A DNA stretch of 64,000 nt from a phage. This document shows, piece by piece, positions 1,783-50,499 of the stretch (its first letter is position 1; every line of letters starts with the position of its first letter). The notes under the pieces were generated by a model. That model was not told where the DNA came from. It saw only the letters and a program-made list of their open reading frames with translations, and did no database searches. Location of the stretch: sequence record PZ445444.1. One strand, 5' to 3'. A program made the position numbers and the translations under genes.

Positions 1783-3850
1783 ATTTATGGCATCTGCATA
1801 CAACCGTTTCGGTGAGCCAAACCCGAAAGCAACTAAGTATAAAAGTGGGGGAAGTGTGAAACGAGACTATCGTGATGAAAAAGAAGTTGAAACTGTAGAG
1901 ACTGTTTTAGAAAATACTAAAATTGTCCCTGTCCCACAACAAAATATCGGTCTGATGGCTGCACAATATTTTGGTGTGCGATCAGCATTGTCACAAGAAG
2001 ACGGTGTGACAGTCACTGCAACATATTTCCCATATTACGACCGCTACGGAAATCTGTCCGGTTTCAAAAAGCGTGACTGGACTATTCCTAAGGAACAAAG
2101 GGGTCACTTCTCCGTTGTTGGCATCGTAAAGGCCAACTCCCAGATGTTTGGTCAAAAGCTGTGTGCATCTTCCAACAACCGTAAGCAGATTAACGTTTGT
2201 GAGGGAGAAGGTGATGTTATTGCAGCATGGCAGGCTGCATATCAGATACAAGTAAAAGGGATTCTCACCAACGCTAAAGCCCCGGCAAAGGTGAAGCAGT
2301 GGGCTAAAGAGGTCCAGGACGGGATCGACGCAGTTATCAACGGTGGTGATCTGGCAGGAAAACCCTGCCTGCCTTTTGTTGGAATTAACTGTGGATGTGC
2401 AAACGCAGTAGATACTTTTGCAAACAATGAGAAGTTTATCCGTAGCTATGGAACAGTTGTGCTGGCAATGGATAACGATGCAGCTAACGAGGTAGAGAAG
2501 CAAAAACACGTCATTAAAGGTGTTGAGGCCACGCACAATATCGCAGCATTTTTGATGGCTGATAACGTTTACCACGTAGAATACCCTGGTGAAGTAAATG
2601 ACCCTGACGGGGTAAAAGATATCCGTGACATGCTGAAGGCTAAAAAGCTGGAAGATATTGTCAACATGTTCCGGCACCCTGTTAAATATGTGCCTGATGC
2701 TGTGTCGGATTTAGAAGACTTCTCTATCGAGTCTTTGCGGAAAAAGACTTCCAACGGGGTAGATATCAGCGCAGAGTTCCCAAAACTGCAAAAAATGCTA
2801 AAAGGCTTGCACAAAGGGACACTCGTAATGCTTACAGGGCCATCAGGGGGCGGTAAAACAACTGTAGCTAAAAAACTGGAACATTGTATTGCAAGATACC
2901 TAATGGACCCGACATGCCCGAAGGCTGATGACTATGAAGAGGATGATCGTCTATGTATGATCCATCTTGAGGAGGACCCAGAGGAAGCAATTAACTCCTT
3001 GTATGCAAACCAGTTAGGGTTTGATGTTAAAGAGTTTGTTGAAGATCCTAGCCAGTTTTTAACTGATCAAGAACACGCAGAGATTCACCAATCATGGGCA
3101 AAAGCTGGAAAAATCAAAGTGTTCAAACATTTCGGATCTATTCCGGTGGACGAGTTGATTACCAAGCTTAAGCAAATGGTTTGCCTGTACCATTGCCGTT
3201 ATATTGTGCTGGATCACCTGTCCATGGTAATTTCAGGGCTTAATGTTAAGGATGAGCGAAAAGAACTGGACATGGCTATGACTCAGCTGGCTGCGTTTTG
3301 TAAGCAGTTTAACGTGTTTATCTTGGTGATCGCTCACCTCAAACGTACAGAGATTGTGCCTCCTAAGGACAAGGATGGTAACCCGTTACCTTTCTGGTAT
3401 CCTGTGCGAAAAGAGAATTTGCGAGGATCGGCGGGGCTTGAACAGTTGAGTTGGGTAGTCATAGGTGTCGAGGCCGAAGAAATGGTGGATCGTTCTCGTG
3501 GACGTGTCCGTCTGGTAGGTCTTAAAAACCGTCCAGCAAAAACTCTAGGTATTGCTGACACTTTGGTTATGGACCCGCACACAGGTAAGTTCCATGATGC
3601 CAGTAATTGGTACTGGGACAAAGAAATGCAAATGTTTACAGACGGAGAAGGTGGGGAGGTTGTTTGGAGACCTCAGGCTATGTTTGAGGATCAGGAGCAT
3701 GCAGTTGTAGAAACACCTATGGGCAAGGTTGTGGCTGATAAGGTTGTAACTCCTACTGTTAAGCCTGTTGACACGCAGGAAGACCTCCAGTACGATGATC
3801 CATCCTCTGACCCGGTCCCCGGTTTTGAGGATGATGAAACACCTTTTTAA
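1772..3850 (+). CDS. bifunctional DNA primase-helicase (T7 gp4-like)
   Basis: 692 aa; TOPRIM-like CEGEGD segment in the N-terminal half; Walker A LTGPSGGGKTT and DnaB-family features in the C-terminal half. Confidence 0.85.
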   Translation: MGSKFMASAYNRFGEPNPKATKYKSGGSVKRDYRDEKEVETVETVLENTKIVPVPQQNIGLMAAQYFGVRSALSQEDGVTVTATYFPYYDRYGNLSGFKKRDWTIPKEQRGHFSVVGIVKANSQMFGQKLCASSNNRKQINVCEGEGDVIAAWQAAYQIQVKGILTNAKAPAKVKQWAKEVQDGIDAVINGGDLAGKPCLPFVGINCGCANAVDTFANNEKFIRSYGTVVLAMDNDAANEVEKQKHVIKGVEATHNIAAFLMADNVYHVEYPGEVNDPDGVKDIRDMLKAKKLEDIVNMFRHPVKYVPDAVSDLEDFSIESLRKKTSNGVDISAEFPKLQKMLKGLHKGTLVMLTGPSGGGKTTVAKKLEHCIARYLMDPTCPKADDYEEDDRLCMIHLEEDPEEAINSLYANQLGFDVKEFVEDPSQFLTDQEHAEIHQSWAKAGKIKVFKHFGSIPVDELITKLKQMVCLYHCRYIVLDHLSMVISGLNVKDERKELDMAMTQLAAFCKQFNVFILVIAHLKRTEIVPPKDKDGNPLPFWYPVRKENLRGSAGLEQLSWVVIGVEAEEMVDRSRGRVRLVGLKNRPAKTLGIADTLVMDPHTGKFHDASNWYWDKEMQMFTDGEGGEVVWRPQAMFEDQEHAVVETPMGKVVADKVVTPTVKPVDTQEDLQYDDPSSDPVPGFEDDETPF

Positions 3851-3908: not shown

Positions 3909-4643
3909 ATGAACGAGTTCAGAGATCACTGTGTAGCTAATCACTTGTGGTCAGAAATATTGGAGTATGACGGTCAAAATCTTTTTTGGAAGATAGACAT
4001 TCTGGCAGGCAGCGGTGTAGGATATGTTAAAACTTCAGCAGGCTCCAGAGCTGACAAGGGGCAAGATGCTGATGGCAGGCCTGTGGTTAGTCTAGGAAAG
4101 CATTGCACTAAAGGTGCCCACGTTATAATCTGGGAAATGTTTAACGGTCCTGTACCGGAGGGGTATGAGGTTGACCACATCAAGGAGATAAGGGAAACAG
4201 GTGGTGTGGCTGACAACAGTATTCAAAATTTGCAACTACTCGAACCTACAGATAACAAAAAGAAAAGTTGCAAGATACCTCGTAGCAACAACAAATCTGG
4301 CAGGGTCGGGGTGCACTATTCTGAAGAAAGAGGGGCATGGGTAGCTCAAGGCACAGACTCTGTAGGTGAAAGGGTCTGGCTAGGCCAGTACAGAACTTTT
4401 GAAGAGGCAGAGTGGGCAAGAAAGTTCTTCGAAGATAATGGTTTTTCGCACAAGAGTGGAAGAGCCGTGCAGTATAATAACACCAGCGGTTGCTCAGGGG
4501 TGAATTGGGATAAAACCCATGAAAGATGGGTAGCCAGAATTTATGTAGATGGTAAAAGGAAATGCCTTGGGTATTTCAAGAACAGGGACGATGCAATAGC
4601 TGCAAGAAAGAATGCTGAGAAGACACAGGAGGAGACAGTATGA
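3909..4643 (+). CDS. free-standing HNH homing endonuclease with AP2-like repeats
   Basis: HNH core EVDHIKEIRETGGVADNSIQNLQLL; repeated RVGVHY...GAWVA and GVNWDK..RWVARI AP2-like segments; sits between primase-helicase and DNA polymerase. Confidence 0.7.
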   Translation: MNEFRDHCVANHLWSEILEYDGQNLFWKIDILAGSGVGYVKTSAGSRADKGQDADGRPVVSLGKHCTKGAHVIIWEMFNGPVPEGYEVDHIKEIRETGGVADNSIQNLQLLEPTDNKKKSCKIPRSNNKSGRVGVHYSEERGAWVAQGTDSVGERVWLGQYRTFEEAEWARKFFEDNGFSHKSGRAVQYNNTSGCSGVNWDKTHERWVARIYVDGKRKCLGYFKNRDDAIAARKNAEKTQEETV

Positions 4644-7069
4644 GTAATTGGTGCTTCGATCTGGAGGCCTCAGGGCTTTTGGAAGATCCAGATCTTTATT
4701 ATCACTGCGGTCTGTTTAAAGAGCTGAATAAGAACCGTTTTATGCTGTTCCTTCCTCTAAATGACCGCACACACTACTCCGAGGAGGATATAGAAAAGGC
4801 TAAGAACTTCATTCTGGCAAAGAAAACTCTTTATAAAGATTTTGAAGTTCGCATAGCAGATTTTTCGGAGTTGGAAGGTTGGCTTACAGGCAATTCTGAC
4901 TGGTCACCAACAGCTTTGAACTGCCATAACTGCTACAGTTATGACTTTATGCTAATGGAAAGATTATCCGGTATTCATTTTGATATGTTCCGTGATCCTA
5001 AATGCATGGGGACTATCAACGACCACCAGGTTAACCTGTTTGATACGTTGGCTATGAGCCGAATCTTGTGGCCTGATCGCCCTTTACCAAAAGGTTGTCC
5101 GGACGCTGTATTCAACCCGGTTACTAAGAAAATGCAACCTGTTGGTCCTCACGGCCTTATGGCATGGGGCTACGCCCTTGGTAACCAGAAAGTTCAAATT
5201 GATGACTGGCGCGATCTTCCGCTGTGGAAATATGTGGATCGTGTGTTCGAGGACGTTATCATCCAGGAGTTGCTCTGGAAAGAGTTGGTAGCGGAATCAA
5301 AAGGTGTATTCTACGGCAAATCTGACATGCAGAACTTTATGTATGACCCTGCCAAAGAGAAGCCTAAAGGATTCAAGAAGATTACCTGGAAGAATGCATT
5401 ACGCCGAGGCATGCTGCAGCATTTCCTGATGGAGCTGCAGGCTCGACAGGGTGTGTATTTCGACATAGATGGGGCTATTGCTTTACGTGACCGTTGCGAT
5501 GCGTGGATGAAAGAGATCGCTGATCGTGTTGAACCTCAACTTCCTTTAAAAGAGTTGTCAATGTCTCAGCGGCCCAAGTTCCCTGAAAAGCCGTTTAACC
5601 AAGACGGGACAATCTCCAATAATGGTTGGAAATGGTTAAAAGATAAGCTTGGCTATCCTGTAGACATGAGCGCTTTAGAATTCAAAGCCCCGCCTAAGCG
5701 AGCATTTACCTCCACAGGAGATGTCAGCAAGATGGGGATAAAATGGTGCGAAGAGATGGGCTGCAAAGACCCCGACAAGATGGCTGATTTCTTGAGAGGT
5801 TATATTAAGGGCACCTCCACACCACAACCTTTACCTAAAGAGCTGATGGATCAGGCAATAAGTGATCTGCAGCAGAAGCGAATGCCTGACTGCAAGATAC
5901 CTATGAAAATCAGCAATCAGGACGACATTAAGCGATACCTGATCAGTGCTGGTTGGCTTCCGACAATGTGGAGAACTAAGGATGTAACTAAGGACAGCAA
6001 GAAGAAAGCTCTACCTGATGCAGATGTTGATGCACGAGTATATGCATATATGGACGAGCTTTTAGAGTCAGAGTATTGTGACCTGATTATCAACTTCTGG
6101 AACAAAACTGATGCTAAGTTCCAGACAACCGTGCACAAGTTCCGAAGCTTTCCTAACTCCGAAAGGATTAAAAAGGAAGTATTCGGGAAAATACGTAGAA
6201 AAGCCAGGGCACTTATTACTTCTCCGCAACTGAAAGATACGTTTGGACACCTATGTCCGAATCTTGAAAAATTGAACGGAGAGATGGCTAAAGATATCGT
6301 CTTGTGGTTATCATTGCGAAACCGCAGATCGGTCCTTGATCCAATTAAGGAGGATAAGGTTGATACTGGTCTTCTTAATCACCCACGTTTGAAGATTGAC
6401 CATAAGCTTCCTGCTAAAAGCTCTGGATTAACAAACACTTCCAGACAGAAACACAGTATTTGTGCAAACATGCCTAAACCATCTCCTAAAGTGGTTATGG
6501 GTAAAGAGATGCGTAGCTTGTGGGGTGTTCCTCCTGGATACTTTGAGATCGGTATTGACGGGTCCAACTTAGAGCAGCTTATCGGGGCTTGGGGTGCCTT
6601 TGAGTTCGACAACGGCTTGTACTATGATGTTGTAAGTAACGGGGACGCACACCAAAACAATGCTGAGGCATATACAAAAGTAGCAGGCAGAGAGGTGTCT
6701 CGTAACGACGGTAAACCTATCACGTATGGGGTTATGTACGGGGCACAAAAAGATAAAGTTGCAGATATGCTGGATATCTCCCCAGAGTTGGGGCAAAGGG
6801 TGATCGATGCACTTTGGGATGCCAACCCCGGTCTTAAGGGGCGCAAAGAGGATCTGGAGAAATTCTGGGAAGCAACAGGTAAGAAGTTTATCTACTCTTT
6901 TGATGGTCATGCTATCTGGACCCGATCTAAACACTCTTTACTTAATGCATACCAACAAAATGGTGGTGCATCGCTGTGTGACTTAGTTGGGATACTCATG
7001 CACCACCAAATGGTGAAGCGTGGGTGGTACGATGAAGGTGTCCGTCGTATTATCTATTACCATAAATAA
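4640..7069 (+). CDS. DNA polymerase, family A, with 3'-5' exonuclease domain
   Basis: 809 aa; Exo I motif FDLEASG at the N-terminus; Pol A motif B-like RNDGKPITYGVMYG. Confidence 0.85.
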   Translation: MSNWCFDLEASGLLEDPDLYYHCGLFKELNKNRFMLFLPLNDRTHYSEEDIEKAKNFILAKKTLYKDFEVRIADFSELEGWLTGNSDWSPTALNCHNCYSYDFMLMERLSGIHFDMFRDPKCMGTINDHQVNLFDTLAMSRILWPDRPLPKGCPDAVFNPVTKKMQPVGPHGLMAWGYALGNQKVQIDDWRDLPLWKYVDRVFEDVIIQELLWKELVAESKGVFYGKSDMQNFMYDPAKEKPKGFKKITWKNALRRGMLQHFLMELQARQGVYFDIDGAIALRDRCDAWMKEIADRVEPQLPLKELSMSQRPKFPEKPFNQDGTISNNGWKWLKDKLGYPVDMSALEFKAPPKRAFTSTGDVSKMGIKWCEEMGCKDPDKMADFLRGYIKGTSTPQPLPKELMDQAISDLQQKRMPDCKIPMKISNQDDIKRYLISAGWLPTMWRTKDVTKDSKKKALPDADVDARVYAYMDELLESEYCDLIINFWNKTDAKFQTTVHKFRSFPNSERIKKEVFGKIRRKARALITSPQLKDTFGHLCPNLEKLNGEMAKDIVLWLSLRNRRSVLDPIKEDKVDTGLLNHPRLKIDHKLPAKSSGLTNTSRQKHSICANMPKPSPKVVMGKEMRSLWGVPPGYFEIGIDGSNLEQLIGAWGAFEFDNGLYYDVVSNGDAHQNNAEAYTKVAGREVSRNDGKPITYGVMYGAQKDKVADMLDISPELGQRVIDALWDANPGLKGRKEDLEKFWEATGKKFIYSFDGHAIWTRSKHSLLNAYQQNGGASLCDLVGILMHHQMVKRGWYDEGVRRIIYYHK

Positions 7070-7203
7070 CATTGTGGCTTCGTGCAGTGATGCACGTCGA
7101 AAACCTCTTTAATTGACGGGAAGGCTAAGTTGACTTTTACACCTAAACATGGTAAAAGCTCAATATGCTAATCCGCAGCGAAGACTAAAGGGGTGTAGTT
7201 AAA

Positions 7204-7710
7204 ATGGCTAGATCAGTTGATTATCACGGATATACCGTGTTTGATGATGGAACAATACCTTTATCGAAACGTGATCATACAACAATGTTTTGTTTTGATA
7301 ATGGTCGAGGTTACCTTTGCGTAACCATGTTCATCGAGGGGAAGCAGTGCACAAAAGGTGTCCACCACTTGGTTGCTGAATGCTTTGTATCAAACCCTGA
7401 TCCTGAAAGGCTCACATGGGTGAACCATAAGGACGGAAACAAATACAACAATGCATACTGGAACCTTGAATGGACCACCCCTGGTGGAAATATCAAACAC
7501 GCTTATGATAATGACCTCAGAGTAAGGCCAGTCGGTGAGTATAATGCCAACGCTGTACTGACCGAGGATGAGGTAACGGAGATTTGCGAACTGTTACAGA
7601 GTGGTCTACGACAATGCGAGATTAGGGATCTTGGGTATCCTTATGAGACGGTCAGAGCCATAAAGCAAAGAAGACAGTGGAAACATATCTCTAAAAACTA
7701 CACCTGGTAG
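7204..7710 (+). CDS. free-standing HNH homing endonuclease
   Basis: HNH core VNHKDGNKYNNAYWNLEWTT; located immediately after the DNA polymerase gene. Confidence 0.7.
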   Translation: MARSVDYHGYTVFDDGTIPLSKRDHTTMFCFDNGRGYLCVTMFIEGKQCTKGVHHLVAECFVSNPDPERLTWVNHKDGNKYNNAYWNLEWTTPGGNIKHAYDNDLRVRPVGEYNANAVLTEDEVTEICELLQSGLRQCEIRDLGYPYETVRAIKQRRQWKHISKNYTW

Positions 7711-7902
7711 TAACGTTCAGAGACTATCGAAAGCATAGCGCCAACATAAATTGGTGCGAAGAAGCGAGTAGAGTAGGCCAGCAAGTGCGGTCGAAATGGG
7801 AGGTGCCTTGGTAACAAGGTAGTGAGATAGTCCGATCCATACAGGAAACTGTATGGCTGTGCACGTAATGGTGCGGGGTAGCTTAACGACCTACCTGAAC
7901 TA

Positions 7903-8259
7903 TTGGATGAGTACCAACTTCAGGTCCCTGACACACCTAAGTATAAGACTGTGTACACCTTCGACACAATTGAAGAATTGGAAGCATTTAAGGCAGAGCA
8001 GGAGGCCAAACTTCATGTGTTCGACGGTCATAAGTACAAAAAGGCACGCAAGGATGAAAACGGAAACGAAGTGGTTGACAGAGACGGAAACACGGTGTAC
8101 GATCCTATCCTGAACGATGACGGAAAGCTTGAACTTATCTGGAGCCCTGTGGGTGAAATGGTGGTGCATTGCTTCTGGCAAGCTTCTAAAATGATGGGAG
8201 TCCCGTTCCAGATCACAGGTGAATACTTGTGTGGTCGTAACTGGGGTGATTGTCACTAA
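7903..8259 (+). CDS. hypothetical acidic protein (start uncertain)
   Basis: Protein-like D/E/K-rich frame; TTG start without clear RBS. The overlapping 7853 ATG frame has an RBS but a low-complexity product, so a frameshift or alternative start is possible. Confidence 0.45.
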   Translation: MDEYQLQVPDTPKYKTVYTFDTIEELEAFKAEQEAKLHVFDGHKYKKARKDENGNEVVDRDGNTVYDPILNDDGKLELIWSPVGEMVVHCFWQASKMMGVPFQITGEYLCGRNWGDCH

Positions 8260-45526: not shown

Positions 45527-46000
45527 TTAGTCAACCTGAACCCAACCATCTGCTACCTTTTTAAACATTCTTTGGTTATCACTGCCTCTAAAGGGTTTTT
45601 TGGTGGGGTTATCTTTTTCGTACTTACCGTCCATAATGTAATCAACACTATCTTTAATGTAATCGGGGACTTCTTCAAACAAATACCCTGTGTACACCCA
45701 GATAGTTTTTGTGTTGCCGAAGCGTTCACGGATAGCGCAAATGATTGAATACATACCATCAATATTGTAAGGCGCTAAAGGCTCTCCACCGCATAATGTA
45801 ACGCCGGTAATATGGTTTGGTTCTATAGAGCTAAGTATGCTCTCGATTGTGTCATTTGTTAACGGTTCCCCTTTAGCGGGTGACCAAACACTTTTGTTTT
45901 GGCAACCAACGCAGTGATGTGGACAACCAGAACAGAACACCGTTGTCCTAATGCCTGGGCCGTCAACCATACTACACTCTATAATATTAACAACATTCAT
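45527..46000 (-). CDS. nrdG: anaerobic ribonucleotide reductase activating protein (radical SAM)
   Basis: 157 aa; Cys cluster CSGCPHHCVGCQN near the N-terminus; adjacent to nrdD. Confidence 0.8.
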   Translation of the reverse strand: MNVVNIIECSMVDGPGIRTTVFCSGCPHHCVGCQNKSVWSPAKGEPLTNDTIESILSSIEPNHITGVTLCGGEPLAPYNIDGMYSIICAIRERFGNTKTIWVYTGYLFEEVPDYIKDSVDYIMDGKYEKDNPTKKPFRGSDNQRMFKKVADGWVQVD

Positions 46001-46232
46001 TCCTTATCCTCTTTGAGGTAGGGATATTCAGGCCACAATAAGCTCGATCTAAGAAAACAGCTTCTTCCCCTCTGGAATCGGTAGATCTATAATACCCATC
46101 ACCATGGTAACTAACGAACCAGTAGCACCCATCATCGCTTTCCACTGTTGTGGCTCTGTCCGAATGAAAGATAATTTCGTAATCCTTACCGAGTGTAAAC
46201 CATCTGTTAGCTTTTACACAGACACCTATCAT
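45987..46232 (-). CDS. hypothetical protein (81 aa)
   Basis: Short ORF between nrdG and the zinc-ribbon gene. Confidence 0.4.
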   Translation of the reverse strand: MIGVCVKANRWFTLGKDYEIIFHSDRATTVESDDGCYWFVSYHGDGYYRSTDSRGEEAVFLDRAYCGLNIPTSKRIRNECC

Positions 46233-46548: not shown

Positions 46549-47541
46549 CTACAGGCTATTACCTGTCCTATGTTTACAACAAATCTCTCTATGCGCTGAT
46601 TCTACCATACTGAACACTTCAGGTCTGTAGTTAAAGAATTCGGTACTACCATCAAATTTTACAGGGAAGTTTATTTTATATTTACTGAAGGCTTTGTGCA
46701 CAGATTTTTCTACAGCCAGCATGTTTTCAGTTGATCCTTCCAACGTTTTCACTATGTGAAGATCGCGGATACTAGCTCCAGATCTTTGTGCACTTTTAAG
46801 TATCTGGTCTCTTCGCTTACTTTCATTATGACTGACCCCTATTTTCATAAATGTAGGCACTTCTGGATCATCAACCATAATGTAGAGTTTTCCGTTATCG
46901 TGTGATAAAAATCCTGTTTTAGCACATCTAGGGCAAGCATGTCCCTGCTTAAGACTGCTTGGTACGGTTAACCATGTGTGGCTACAATTTTTACAGCAGC
47001 ACAGGACTTTCTTATCCCACCTAATAATTTCTTCCAATATCTCAACATAAGGATTTCTACTTCTTATGGACTCAACCCACTTTTCGTGTGGTGATGTTTT
47101 ACTTTGTGAGATTCTTGACCCCTTACAAACTGGACAACCTCTTTTCAAATTTATATGGTTATCAGGTGTCTGTGTAAAGTGATTTCCACAAGTGTTGCAG
47201 ATTATTTCTACCCTGTCTTTGCAAGTCTTGTAGTATACGAGAGAGTAGTCATATTTATCTCCATGGATTTCTTTGGCCCTTTCTACAAATTTAAGACCTT
47301 TATTACACTTTGCAGCACGAGAAAGTTTTGCACAAAAAGGACAACCACGACCTTGCAAGTGTTTACAAGGTGCTTGCATAAAATCCCCATGGATTTGGCA
47401 GGTAATGCAAACCTTCGCATAGCAATCCACGTACACTGTTTTCGTGTAATCGTATTTATAACCGTGAATGATTTTCGCCTTCTCTATAAACTCTTCTGTT
47501 GATAATTTAGCCATTTCTTGTTTCCTAACTTCTCTAAACAT
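46549..47541 (-). CDS. zinc-ribbon repeat protein with C-terminal T5orf172/GIY-YIG-like domain (possible free-standing homing endonuclease)
   Basis: Three repeats of HG.KYDY...C..C...CP.C type; C-terminal KLYIMVDDPEVPTFMKIGVSHN ... GSTEFFNY resembles the T5orf172 (GIY-YIG superfamily) pattern. Confidence 0.5.
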   Translation of the reverse strand: MFREVRKQEMAKLSTEEFIEKAKIIHGYKYDYTKTVYVDCYAKVCITCQIHGDFMQAPCKHLQGRGCPFCAKLSRAAKCNKGLKFVERAKEIHGDKYDYSLVYYKTCKDRVEIICNTCGNHFTQTPDNHINLKRGCPVCKGSRISQSKTSPHEKWVESIRSRNPYVEILEEIIRWDKKVLCCCKNCSHTWLTVPSSLKQGHACPRCAKTGFLSHDNGKLYIMVDDPEVPTFMKIGVSHNESKRRDQILKSAQRSGASIRDLHIVKTLEGSTENMLAVEKSVHKAFSKYKINFPVKFDGSTEFFNYRPEVFSMVESAHREICCKHRTGNSL

Positions 47542-47578: not shown

Positions 47579-48841
47579 TCAGCAACTACAACTTCCATAG
47601 TGCTTAACTCGCTCGATAACTTCCGCTTGCTTACCTTTATTGTAAGGACGGGAGTTAGGACTGGAAAGGTATCCAGACACACGTCGAATTACACTGATCG
47701 TTCCCTCTTCATGGTTTCCACACTCTGGGCATACAAAGCCTTTAGCTGTTGCACTGAACTCACCAGAGAAACCACACTTGAGACATTTATCCACAGGTTG
47801 GTTAATACCAAAATACATAATGTGTTTATACCCGAAGTCAACAAGAGCCTCTAAAGCATCCAGGTTGTTTTTCAGGTTGGGTGTTTCTACGTATCCGATG
47901 TTGCCACCAGAGGAGATCATAGCAAAACCTTCCTCATACTCCCACTTATCAAAAGGAGAGCTATTTATCCATACTGGCTGATGGAAACTGTTGGTGAGAT
48001 ATTCATGCTCGTGCTTCAACACTTCCGGATATTCACGATCCAGACAGGTTGCAGCTTTATAGCATAGACTCTCAGAAGGAGTGCCGTACAAGCTAAATGC
48101 TAGTCTACTTTCCTTCTTGTATCGCTCACAAGCATCTCTCATGTGCTGAAGGATTCCAAGAGCTAAAGCCTTGTCACCCTCTCTGCCCAAAATCTGACAG
48201 GTTTCATACACACCGATATACCCAATACTGATGGAAGCGTACCCGTCATAGAAGAGTTTATCAATACTCTCTTCAGGATCCAGGCGAGCAAGAGCGCCTT
48301 CACACCACATGATGGGGTTCTGCCCTGCCTTTGTTCCTTTTAGACGATTAACCCTTACAAGGTGAGCCTCGTATGCAAGATCCAAGTATTCGTCAAGAAC
48401 TGCAAAGAAATCAACACCTTCAGTCTTGGCTTTTGCCGCAATCATTGGCAGGTTAAGGCTAACAACGCCTAAGTTAAATCTGCCAAGGTATTTCTCCTCG
48501 CCTGTTTCCAAGTCATTGTATTTGCTAAGAAAACTCCTGCAACCCATGCTAGTTACTTTGCCATCTGTCGAGCCTGTCACTTTTCTATTTAGTGGTACAG
48601 ATACGAAGTCAGGATAGATACGTTCTGCACAGCATTCCAGAGCTAATCGTTTCAAATCATAGTTAGGATCCCCAGGGTTCATGTTGACACCCTCTTCCAG
48701 GAAGAACAGCACTTTAGGGAACACAGGTGTGATACGTTCTTCACCAAGACCCATTTTGTGGACTTTCAGGTAGTTTTTGGTAATCATTCTACCAAAGACC
48801 GAGGTATCCAGTCCTAAACTCAATGTGATGAATGGAGTCTG
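47579..48841 (-). CDS. nrdD: anaerobic ribonucleoside-triphosphate reductase, exon 2
   Basis: Begins QTPFITLSLGLDTS (E. coli NrdD QTPFVTFGFGLGTS); C-terminal glycyl-radical region RRVSGYLSSPNSRPYNKGKQAEV and Cys cluster. Confidence 0.8.
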   Translation of the reverse strand, partial: QTPFITLSLGLDTSVFGRMITKNYLKVHKMGLGEERITPVFPKVLFFLEEGVNMNPGDPNYDLKRLALECCAERIYPDFVSVPLNRKVTGSTDGKVTSMGCRSFLSKYNDLETGEEKYLGRFNLGVVSLNLPMIAAKAKTEGVDFFAVLDEYLDLAYEAHLVRVNRLKGTKAGQNPIMWCEGALARLDPEESIDKLFYDGYASISIGYIGVYETCQILGREGDKALALGILQHMRDACERYKKESRLAFSLYGTPSESLCYKAATCLDREYPEVLKHEHEYLTNSFHQPVWINSSPFDKWEYEEGFAMISSGGNIGYVETPNLKNNLDALEALVDFGYKHIMYFGINQPVDKCLKCGFSGEFSATAKGFVCPECGNHEEGTISVIRRVSGYLSSPNSRPYNKGKQAEVIERVKHYGSCSC

Positions 48842-49638
48842 CTGTCTCCTCCCTGTGTTTCCACAGGGCCAGACTATCTCTTACTCTACTTCAATAAGAT
48901 AATAACCCTTTATTGTGAGATGCTTACCTTCGGCATTTCCTTCGATAGCCCTATGAACGTTACCTACGTTCAAATTTAAGGCTTTTGCACAGGCATAGAG
49001 TGAAGGATATTCACCCACCAAGGTTTTCCCTTTGTATGCCTGCACTTTCCTATAGCACTTACCTGGACAAAGTCCTGTTCGGAAAGCATGTCTCTTATTA
49101 TCTTCCGGCAAAACCCACTCTAGGTTAGACGGATGATCATTCAATGTATTGCCATCTTTATGATTCACTTCCCAGTTTTCAGGGTCTTCTGGGACATCCG
49201 GCAAACAATACAAGGCAACAATCCTTGAGGTTTGGATTCGAATCTTTTTACCTTTGTGGTTGAAAGAGTACATATAACGGCGTTTAACATGCTTGTTACC
49301 TTTTCCATAACCTCCCCACAATATTGGGTGTAGCATTCCACGTTTTCCGTATACGTTTCCAACCTCATCAATCACATAGTTTGATTCTTCACCATTAAGA
49401 ATGATCTTTTTCATAGAGCCTCTCCATTTCGAAGTTAGTATTTCAACTAACCCCTACACTACTTGGTTCAGAAATGTTTGTCAAGCATCTCTGCCTTTCG
49501 TTAGTCGTTACAACCGTTCCAACTCCTGTAAGAACTAGTCACGGGATTGGCATAGCTTTCGCCTTAGCGTTCCCCGTTAGCCGGATTTACCGACCCCTCT
49601 TATGAGGTTAGGAGAGTTTTACAACGGCCAGTTTGTTA
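48842..49638 (-). mobile_element. group I self-splicing intron interrupting nrdD
   Basis: Exon 1 frame stops right after ...NTLTSVNG; intron starts after exon-terminal T and ends in G before QTPF. Core-like elements aacggggaac (P), caatcccgtg (Q), gtaacgactaacg (R), gagatagtctgg (S); P9-like cctgtg-gaaa-cacagg; HNH ORF between R and S. Confidence 0.7.
48881..49414 (-). CDS. intron-encoded HNH homing endonuclease
   Basis: 177 aa; HNH core VNHKDGNTLNDHPSNLEWV; RBS GGAGAGG; lies wholly inside the nrdD intron. Confidence 0.8.
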   Translation of the reverse strand: MKKIILNGEESNYVIDEVGNVYGKRGMLHPILWGGYGKGNKHVKRRYMYSFNHKGKKIRIQTSRIVALYCLPDVPEDPENWEVNHKDGNTLNDHPSNLEWVLPEDNKRHAFRTGLCPGKCYRKVQAYKGKTLVGEYPSLYACAKALNLNVGNVHRAIEGNAEGKHLTIKGYYLIEVE

Positions 49639-50499
49639 ACCGTTGACAGAAGTTAACGTATTGATTTGATAGAGCAAAGTCTGCATGCTGTCAAATACGT
49701 CTTTATCTGTCATTTGCATTGCAACAGTCTCAGCATCTGGCAACCAATGTTCCTGGCAAAATTTAAGGTTCTTCTCATAGGTCGCTTCAGCATACTGTGC
49801 CAGATAATGATCAATATGGCTCATAGTCTGACCCCCATATTGAGCACTAGCTACTGCACTAGAGATTTGGCTAAGGATTGTTGTTGCAACCCCTATTGAC
49901 TTAGGCTTACTGACATGGGCGTTACCAATGTTGAATCCGTTTTCCAACATATCTGGATAATTTACCAAACAACAGTTTGTTAACGGACTGATCAAGTAGT
50001 CAAGATCATGCACATGGATGAAGCCTCTATTGTGCTCTTCTGAGACACGGTCTGGCAGGATCTGTGTTGATGCAAGGTGTTTGCTAAGAATGCCTGCAAG
50101 CAGGTCACGATGAGTGTGTACATGATTGGTAGGCTTATTTGCGTTTTCTTTTGTAAATTCATCACAAGTGCGATCCAAGAAGCCACTAATATCTGCAAGC
50201 AGTTTTCCACCTGCCTCTCTGTTATTATCTCTTGTCTGCCTATACTGGATGTATTCTCTGGCTGCACATTTTAAACCCATATCCATAAGAGCGTCTTCAA
50301 CAAGGATATGGATATTTTTTACAGAGATCGTGCACTGGTCGGTTGGTAGATTGTTAGCAACAACTTCATTAACCGCGCAGGCGATCCGGTAAGCTTCTTC
50401 TTCAGTATGTCCAGACTCAAGTAAGGCGGACTCTGCCGCCTTGATCACCTTAATTCCGTTATAGACCTCTTCTCTACCGTCCCGTTTTACAACTTTCAC
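49639..50499 (-). CDS. nrdD: anaerobic ribonucleoside-triphosphate reductase, exon 1
   Basis: N-terminal ATP-cone (VVKRDGREE...); collinear with the E. coli NrdD N-terminal 300 aa up to ...NTLTSVNG. Confidence 0.8.

Follow-up and report, generated by a model that had tools for sequence, protein, structure and literature searches.

A very probable group I intron of subgroup IA2 with an I-HmuI-like HNH gene splits nrdD of an rV5-like coliphage

The 64,000-nucleotide (nt) stretch of phage DNA analyzed here (record PZ445444.1), referred to below as the window, comes from an rV5-like coliphage of the genus Vequintavirus. Its ribonucleotide reductase (RNR) locus reads, in minus-strand order, nrdA, nrdB, glutaredoxin, nrdD, an insert, and nrdG, with all relevant genes on the minus strand. 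The nrdD gene is itself split by 797 nt, and this intervening sequence is very probably a mobile group I intron of subgroup IA2. Phages nomine and Mangalyan match the 1.3 kb surrounding the nrdD insertion with 99.5% identity.

The open reading frame (ORF) of exon 1 spans 49636..50499 and ends in ...NTLTSVNG. Its last sense codon, GGU (49641-49639), is followed directly by UAA (49638-49636), as the intervening sequence opens with UAAC and thereby gives exon 1 an in-frame stop. Exon 2 opens at 48841 with CAG ACU CCA (QTPFITLSLG...), placing the insertion between the Gly and Gln codons of a conserved ...NG|QTPF motif. Conceptual splicing yields a protein of 707 amino acids with no internal stops, which across the junction agrees at every residue with the uninterrupted 712-amino acid NrdD of phage inoa. 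The exons are also collinear with T4 NrdD, and they divide the Pfam NRDD profile between them (positions 1-154 for exon 1, 156-562 for exon 2). The intervening sequence is exactly 797 nt long (49638..48842). It is preceded by the U at 49639, the last base of exon 1 and the U of the 5' splice site, and its final base is a G (omega-G, 48842), which in all variants precedes a CAR glutamine codon. A sequence-only reading of the window had proposed these limits, collinearity with an uninterrupted NrdD, an exon-terminal U, and a final G. The limits are exact to the nucleotide, as judged from the ORFs, Pfam, and intron-less alleles; the collinearity is borne out against inoa, T4 NrdD, and the Pfam profile; and both bases are seen.

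Inteins are frequent in RNR genes (PMC3653736), but an intein or a translational bypass in place of an RNA intron is already refuted by the sequence, and we give it practically no chance. UAA stands directly after exon 1, the insertion contains no intein domains, and its sole ORF is a separately initiated HNH gene. For a bypass, 797 nt is far above the known gap sizes.

The site is polymorphic. Among 118 Vequintavirus records matching the nrdD flanks, 27 have the 797-nt intron with its HNH gene, 14 have at this position a 257-nt intron without an ORF (CM1, L001:3263-3519, is one of them), and the remaining ~77 lack the element. The intron-less matches listed span exactly 504 bp (262 + 242). 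Because related genomes lack exactly these 797 nt, the insertion is not due to chance. All seven intron-less alleles that were read (inoa and six others) are uninterrupted and have the sequence ...GUCAACGGG|CAAAC..., that is, AACGGG|CAAAC. Alleles with the HNH intron read AACGGU|...|CAGAC, and those with the ORF-less intron AACGGU|...|CAAAC. All intron alleles examined have the exon-terminal U, which group I splicing needs; the seven empty ones all lack it. Two silent differences flank the insertion site (49639/48839 in the window; loci L004 and L060-L064), GGG|CAA in intron-less versus GGU|CAG in HNH-intron alleles. These differences could reflect co-conversion, a requirement for the U in splicing, or resistance of GGG alleles to being invaded.

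The intervening sequence contains the helices of a group I intron (Table 1). These were examined in an alignment of seven sequences: the window, MaxBurger, the metagenomic L065, L066, and L068 (divergent copies reached through the HNH protein), and the ORF-less CM1 and L009. P8 loops were equalized in length and short P7.1 elements padded with N. P1, formed by the exon end and the internal guide, has seven of seven pairs in all seven variants with an invariant U.G, and exon and guide covary at its outermost pair (C-G, A-U, U-A, and U-G). P2 is absent. The two strands of P3 show a compensatory change from C-G to G-C in the ORF-less allele. Each of the two hairpins that follow the P3 5' strand (in J3/4) has one compensatory pair, and UAA then precedes P4. 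The P/Q pairing corresponds to P4 (ACGGGG/UCCCGU) and the R/S pairing to P7 (GACUA/UAGUC). By blastn, the P4-P6 domain matches introns of Listeria, Bacillus, and Enterococcus phages.

The sequence at the junction of P7.1 and P7.2 is ...AGU-GUA-GGGGUUAGU.... Linkage of P7.1 and P7.2 by G-U-A is a criterion of subgroup IA2 (PMC3428280), and the intron is placed there on this basis. P8 is formed by GCUCUA (49419-49414) and UAGAGU (48888-48883), and the J8/7-P7 segment AAGAGAUAGUC aligns to the consensus of the Rfam model. A candidate P10 consists of three base pairs, between CUG (49631-49629) and the first bases of the 3' exon, CAG. The hairpin across the 3' splice site, whose exon bases are +5 to +8 of exon 2, covaries elsewhere (GGGG/CCCC and GGGCA/UGCCC). 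In the variants with this covarying hairpin, canonical P10 is weak or absent.

The P1-P9 model comprises 76 pairs. In the alignment, 96.5% of cells have standard pairs, compared with 34-51% in controls that displace the partners by 1-3 columns, and compensatory changes on both sides occur in 16 pairs, compared with 0-3 in these controls. None of 500 shuffles reaches the observed values for paired cells, for pairs and cells with both-side changes, or for the covariation score, whereas further pair types are no more numerous than in the same shuffles. Five of six pairs in P8 and three of seven in P9 are compensatory. A strict core pattern retrieved 51 loci in IMG/VR, and the layout of P3, two hairpins, UAA, and P4 occurs in 32 unique introns from IMG/VR and the vequintavirus loci. 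P3 pairs at six of six positions in these 32 related phage introns, with many differing sequences, and for this reason we take the odd placement of the two hairpins to be real. No partner worked for a P3 adjoining P4, and the CUCUCC/GGAGAG pairing was adopted after its recurrence in the 32 introns. In the searchable papers we found no description or name for the two-hairpin J3/4 layout, including under the nomenclature 'P3.1/P3.2'. The P/Q/R/S core and the P9 hairpin with its GNRA cap, both predicted from the window alone, are thus present, with compensatory changes in the seven variants and complementary P3 strands in the 32 introns.

Table 1. Features of the nrdD intron, its exons, and the adjoining spacer, in minus-strand order
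Feature	Coordinates	Strand	Description
nrdD exon 1	49639..50499	(-)	287 codons; ATP-cone and N-terminal NRDD domain (ORF list, Pfam)
Group I intron, subgroup IA2 (very probable)	48842..49638	(-)	Presence/absence in 118 genomes, covariation, sub-threshold RF00028 matches
Internal guide GCCGUUG	49622..49628	(-)	Pairs with exon CAACGGU (49645-49639) as P1; U.G at splice site
P3 5' strand CUCUCC	49611..49616	(-)	Pairs with GGAGAG 49425-49420
Two hairpins, CCUC-AUAA-GAGG and GUCGG-UAAAU-CCGGC	49580..49607	(-)	Between P3 5' strand and J3/4-P4
P4-P5-P6 domain	49513..49577	(-)	P4 ACGGGG/UCCCGU; P5/P5a with GAAA loop; P6/P6a
P7 5' strand GACUA	49502..49506	(-)	Pairs with UAGUC 48876-48872; pseudoknot with P3; invariant in variants
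Extended P7.1, GUA linker, P7.2	49431..49501	(-)	IA2 signature; P7.1 loop with conserved UUGACAA
P3 3' strand GGAGAG	49420..49425	(-)	Also Shine-Dalgarno sequence of HNH ORF
HNH homing-endonuclease ORF, I-HmuI-like	48881..49414	(-)	177 amino acids, fills P8 loop; Pfam HNH_3, PHROG 59, PDB 1U3E
J8/7 AAGAGAUAG, P7 3' strand, P9 CCCUGUG-GAAA-CACAGGG	48851..48882	(-)	Rfam alignment, covariation
Hairpin across 3' splice site	48834..48849	(-)	Intron GGAG (48849-48846)/exon CUCC (48837-48834); omega-G in loop
nrdD exon 2	47579..48841	(-)	420 codons including glycyl-radical domain; Pfam NRDD 156-562, Gly_radical
T5orf172 (GIY-YIG-related)/treble-clef zinc-finger endonuclease-like gene	46549..47541	(-)	330 amino acids, in nrdD-nrdG spacer

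Most GenBank records give two separate nrdD coding sequences with an HNH gene between them, and there is a precedent for a gene split in this manner. In Aeromonas phage Aeh1, nrdA is divided by the endonuclease gene mobE, and the two products reassemble into NrdA (PMC3045599, as described in PMC3653736). The nrdD gene might likewise be split by an endonuclease cassette and work without RNA splicing. We regard this as highly improbable, as the insertion contains a complete ribozyme core with compensatory changes that extend to the pairing of guide and exon, and the 257-nt allele at the same site has no ORF of any kind and cannot be an endonuclease cassette. In addition, exon 2 has no plausible start. 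The earliest codon that could serve, a UUG, is located 18 nt into the exon, ~22 nt downstream of the sole Shine-Dalgarno-like run.

The sole ORF of the intron matches Pfam HNH_3 with 29.3 bits (cut-off 24.8) and PHROG 59, 'HNH endonuclease,' at 1.5e-26. Its residues 8-160 align with I-HmuI (PDB 1U3E) at an E-value of 2.7e-4. The aligned motifs are NHKDGN...SNLEW...EDN in the ORF and DHKDGN...TNLRW...KIN in 1U3E, and the HNH motif positions are filled by His85, Asn97, and Asn106. The matching His and Asn residues of I-HmuI are presumably catalytic. The Pfam match and the alignment with I-HmuI agree with the earlier proposal that the ORF encodes an HNH endonuclease; as also proposed, it lies between R and S, here in the loop of P8.

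The HNH ORF overlaps the elements of the ribozyme core. The A of the ORF's AUG is also the last base of the P8 5' strand. The 3' strand of P8 consists of the last sense codons and the U of the UAA stop, and the leftover AA opens J8/7. The GGAGAG of P3, as Shine-Dalgarno sequence, ends 5 nt before the AUG. With the ribosome-binding site in P3, the AUG in P8, and the stop across P8 and J8/7, a folded ribozyme and endonuclease translation would be mutually exclusive, and folding of the core should block production of the endonuclease.

P7.1 is extended by 35 nt only in the HNH-bearing variants; the ORF-less allele does not have the extension. All four HNH-bearing lineages keep TTGACA in the loop of this longer P7.1 (49456..49484, minus strand), with covariation in the stem. 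The TTGACA is followed after 17 nt by TAGTGT or TAGGGT. As a promoter, TTGACA-N17-TAGTGT was not accepted: its -10 hexamer scores 3/6 and it fails the criteria of a promoter scan, leaving it as speculation. It is possible, although we consider it rather doubtful, that the endonuclease gene and the ribozyme are coupled more closely than in the classic T4 cases and that an internal promoter may switch between splicing and homing. If the P7.1 promoter were true, its transcripts, being devoid of the P3 5' strand, would be the only RNAs from which the endonuclease is translated, which would provide such a switch.

Several observations weigh against a splicing-competent intron with an I-HmuI-like enzyme. 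The Rfam model RF00028 at its gathering score of 50 matches neither the window nor the ORF-less homologues. The P10 pairing CUG/CAG is not conserved in other intron variants, and the covariation set is shallow, with its seven sequences representing about four distinct lineages. The C-terminal NUMOD-like domain of I-HmuI scores 18.4 bits in the ORF, below the Pfam cut-off of 27, while the alignment with 1U3E spans this region. The promoter scan, which covered 48700-49800, found no internal sigma-70 promoter. Lastly, aerobic growth in the laboratory does not require nrdD, and a split gene that is left unspliced is therefore tolerable in principle.

A covariance-model search had been proposed along with the sequence-only reading. 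It yielded a full-length match to RF00028, but the bit scores (27.7 for the window, 29.3 for the ORF-less allele) are below the gathering score. The corresponding E-values are 1e-4 in a scan of 1.5 kb of the window and 1e-5 on the ORF-less allele. With permissive scoring, the 5' half of the model is mis-threaded into the ORF in the window, and the second hairpin is taken for P3 in the ORF-less allele. In a control at threshold, RF00028 failed to detect 11 of 13 introns belonging to the same class, along with all four tested introns of the standard td-like layout (loci L008-L049). We therefore attribute the sub-threshold score to a weakness of the model and not of the intron. Annotation pipelines that rely on RF00028 at its curated threshold will miss most such phage introns.

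The sub-threshold Rfam score and weak P10, together with the general knowledge that nrdD is not essential aerobically, would also fit an intron that has decayed and no longer splices, with nrdD a pseudogene tolerated in laboratory conditions. This appears quite improbable to us, given that all intron-bearing genomes examined retain both exons intact (41 carry an intron at the site). Furthermore, the core helices still pair through compensatory changes, the core is 98.7-100% conserved among carriers, and the U at -1 distinguishes all intron alleles examined from the seven intron-less ones.

For the mobile IA2 intron, which we prefer, catalysis and cleavage specificity are, like the regulation considered above, what we infer from structure and from related enzymes. 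On unspliced RNA, a ribosome would halt at the intron's opening UAA. The exon end CAACGGU would pair with the guide GCCGUUG as P1, with U.G at the splice site, and the P3-P8 and P4-P6 domains with the P7 pseudoknot would form the guanosine-binding core. An external G would then attack after U49639 and the freed exon after omega-G 48842, and the joined exons would make up an mRNA for the 707-amino acid NrdD. By analogy with I-HmuI, I-BasI, and I-TwoI, the HNH enzyme would support homing. In a mixed infection, it would nick or cut intron-less nrdD near the insertion site, and recombinational repair would copy the intron, along with some flanking exon, into the recipient.

The intron is present or absent at one fixed site and appears from sequence comparison to have spread laterally. 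It is 99-100% identical between carriers whose flanking exons are 92-98% identical. In EI-SP-GF, for example, the identities are 94.7% for exon 1, 100% for the intron core, 99.6% for the ORF, and 92.1% for exon 2. The same signature is seen with the distant phage L068, with identities of 81-96% in the intron, compared with 40-80% in the exons and 60% in the exon 1 protein. Homologues of the endonuclease number nine among 5.8 billion protein clusters. The three closest of these nine (62-87% identity) are all found at the same nrdD site in the same type of intron. No copy of the intron was found in 5,426 complete E. coli genomes. Eighteen 'Campylobacter phage' records (MG0656xx, host C. jejuni) are >90% identical to E. 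coli vequintaviruses at this locus; their Campylobacter names or hosts look doubtful.

In design, the nrdD intron is closest to the T4 nrdD (sunY) intron, which carries I-TevII, interrupts the same host gene, and has the same IA2 plan (read from NC_000866). The two share the UAAC opening, P1 followed by GUAAAA and P3, the absence of P2, and ACGGG in P4, the P4 motif being nearly identical to those of both T4 td and sunY. They also share P7.1-GUA-P7.2 (GUAGGG in T4) ending in CGAAAC and a P9 hairpin. J8/7-P7 of T4 sunY reads AAGAUAUAGUC, and AAGAUAUAGUCU then leads to the P9 hairpin, the same plan as here. The T4 intron sits 32 nt upstream of the homologous position, within the same conserved ...NTL.S.NGQTPF block, and thus the exact site differs. 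T4 td and sunY are without the two hairpins between P3 and P4 and have only UAAA there. The T4 intron encodes a GIY-YIG protein 3' of the catalytic core, whereas the HNH ORF here is in P8. We take the T4 ORF to lie in the P9.1 region. T4 is also a mirror image of the present locus: its intron encodes the GIY-YIG enzyme I-TevII, and the free-standing gene that separates nrdG from nrdD is the HNH gene mobC.

The enzyme itself belongs to the same family as I-HmuI of the DNA-polymerase intron of Bacillus phage SPO1, along with I-HmuII, I-BasI, and I-TwoI. I-HmuI has 174 amino acids, compared with 177 here, and its His-Asn-Asn motif is conserved, although the overall similarity noted above is weak. 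Both enzymes are carried by IA2 phage introns in genes of nucleotide metabolism or replication (PMC3428280). The SPO1 intron differs in residing in another host gene and in a phage of another bacterial host phylum. The ORF-less nrdD intron of CM1, AlexBoehm, 241Ecol014PP, and others has the same site, P1 guide, core, and P9 as the window's intron and is ~86-87% identical to it over the blastn-aligned parts (70% of the intron, including the first 139 nt). In its 257 nt, P8 is a 34-nt hairpin and P7.1 a 3-bp stem without the 35-nt extension. In Certrevirus CB7, also of the Vequintavirinae, HNH introns in the genes for terminase, DNA polymerase, nrdA, and nrdB are spliced in vivo, as observed by reverse-transcription PCR (PMC7344957); nrdD was not reported as interrupted in CB7, and no RNA structures were given (PMC7344957).

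The split of nrdD and the homing endonuclease are already part of GenBank annotation, and the element is of a known selfish kind. In the FV3 record (2012), the ORF is flanked by two nrdD fragments and carries the label 'HNH homing endonuclease,' and BASEL records join both exons into one coding sequence. The BASEL paper annotated intron boundaries by comparison, with nothing further; the rV5 paper reported introns only in the terminase gene; and an RNR survey makes no mention of rV5 or FV3. A literature search found no paper describing the RNA of the nrdD intron or testing its splicing. The present analysis corrects the annotation, since in most of the 41 affected genomes nrdD is listed as two or three separate genes, along with a hypothetical protein. 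It also reveals, within one genus, an empty site, an ORF-less intron, and an HNH intron at a single position, with more introns elsewhere in nrdD. This constitutes a natural system for studying endonuclease acquisition by introns, co-conversion, and target-allele resistance (e.g., GGG|CAA versus GGU|). The insertion is a second, independent invasion of a 40-bp conserved block of nrdD that is also used by the T4 intron. Nothing here alters the known workings of such elements.

The spacer between nrdD and nrdG harbors a free-standing gene (Table 1). Its product matches Pfam T5orf172 with 30.6 bits (cut-off 20) and the DUF4379 treble-clef zinc finger with 28.9 bits (cut-off 24.5), and belongs to the PHROG 681 'endonuclease' family at 1e-55. 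The spacer is empty in MaxBurger and 241Ecol014PP, contains a 52%-identical allele in inoa, and contains a truncated allele in CM1. At least 80% of the window's spacer version is shared by only one of the 118 genomes. As the gene is present, different, or absent in sister phages, it is an independent insertion. The locus thus has two separate mobile insertions, as had been suggested, with the T5orf172/zinc-finger gene itself polymorphic. Collaborative homing was considered for this gene and rejected, as it is not consistently associated with the ORF-less intron and most carriers of the latter are without it. Between the T5orf172 gene and nrdG lies an ORF of 81 amino acids (45987..46232, minus strand) that belongs to PHROG 3249, of unknown function, and is present in some sister phages and missing in others. 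Other records annotate it as a 'putative minor capsid protein.'

A second group I intron occurs in the window at 7064..7905 on the plus strand, within a family-A DNA polymerase gene. RF00028 matches it with 40.5 bits (E 7e-7) over 7054-7855. The ORF 4640..7069 represents exon 1 of the polymerase gene, with exon 2 beginning at 7906. J8/7 of this intron is GAGAUAGUC at 7824-7832, and the intron ends in ...CUGAACUAUUG, as in T4 sunY. A possible P1 is formed by CCAU of the exon and GUGG of the intron. The HNH ORF of the polymerase intron (7204..7710) encodes 168 amino acids and has 42% identity over 64 residues with the nrdD-intron enzyme, restricted to the HNH motif region.

Additional interruptions of nrdD were noticed in related phages. 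In some sister phages, such as 241Ecol014PP (L002 3820..4581), nrdD contains a further td-like IA2 intron of 762 nt, with another HNH ORF in the P6 region. This intron precedes the Cys codon of ...SMG|CRSF... (...VTSMG|CRSF... in exon 2 of the window), and nrdD of such phages is in three pieces. The Cys in question is presumably the catalytic cysteine (Cys290) of T4 NrdD. A third interruption of nrdD, located upstream near residues 165-171 of exon 1, is found in more distant phages that share the window's nrdD intron: in L065 (~3074-3392), where it is ORF-less, and in L066 (~2478-3406), where it carries an HNH gene for 206 amino acids. Together with these upstream interruptions, there are up to three insertion sites in one nrdD.

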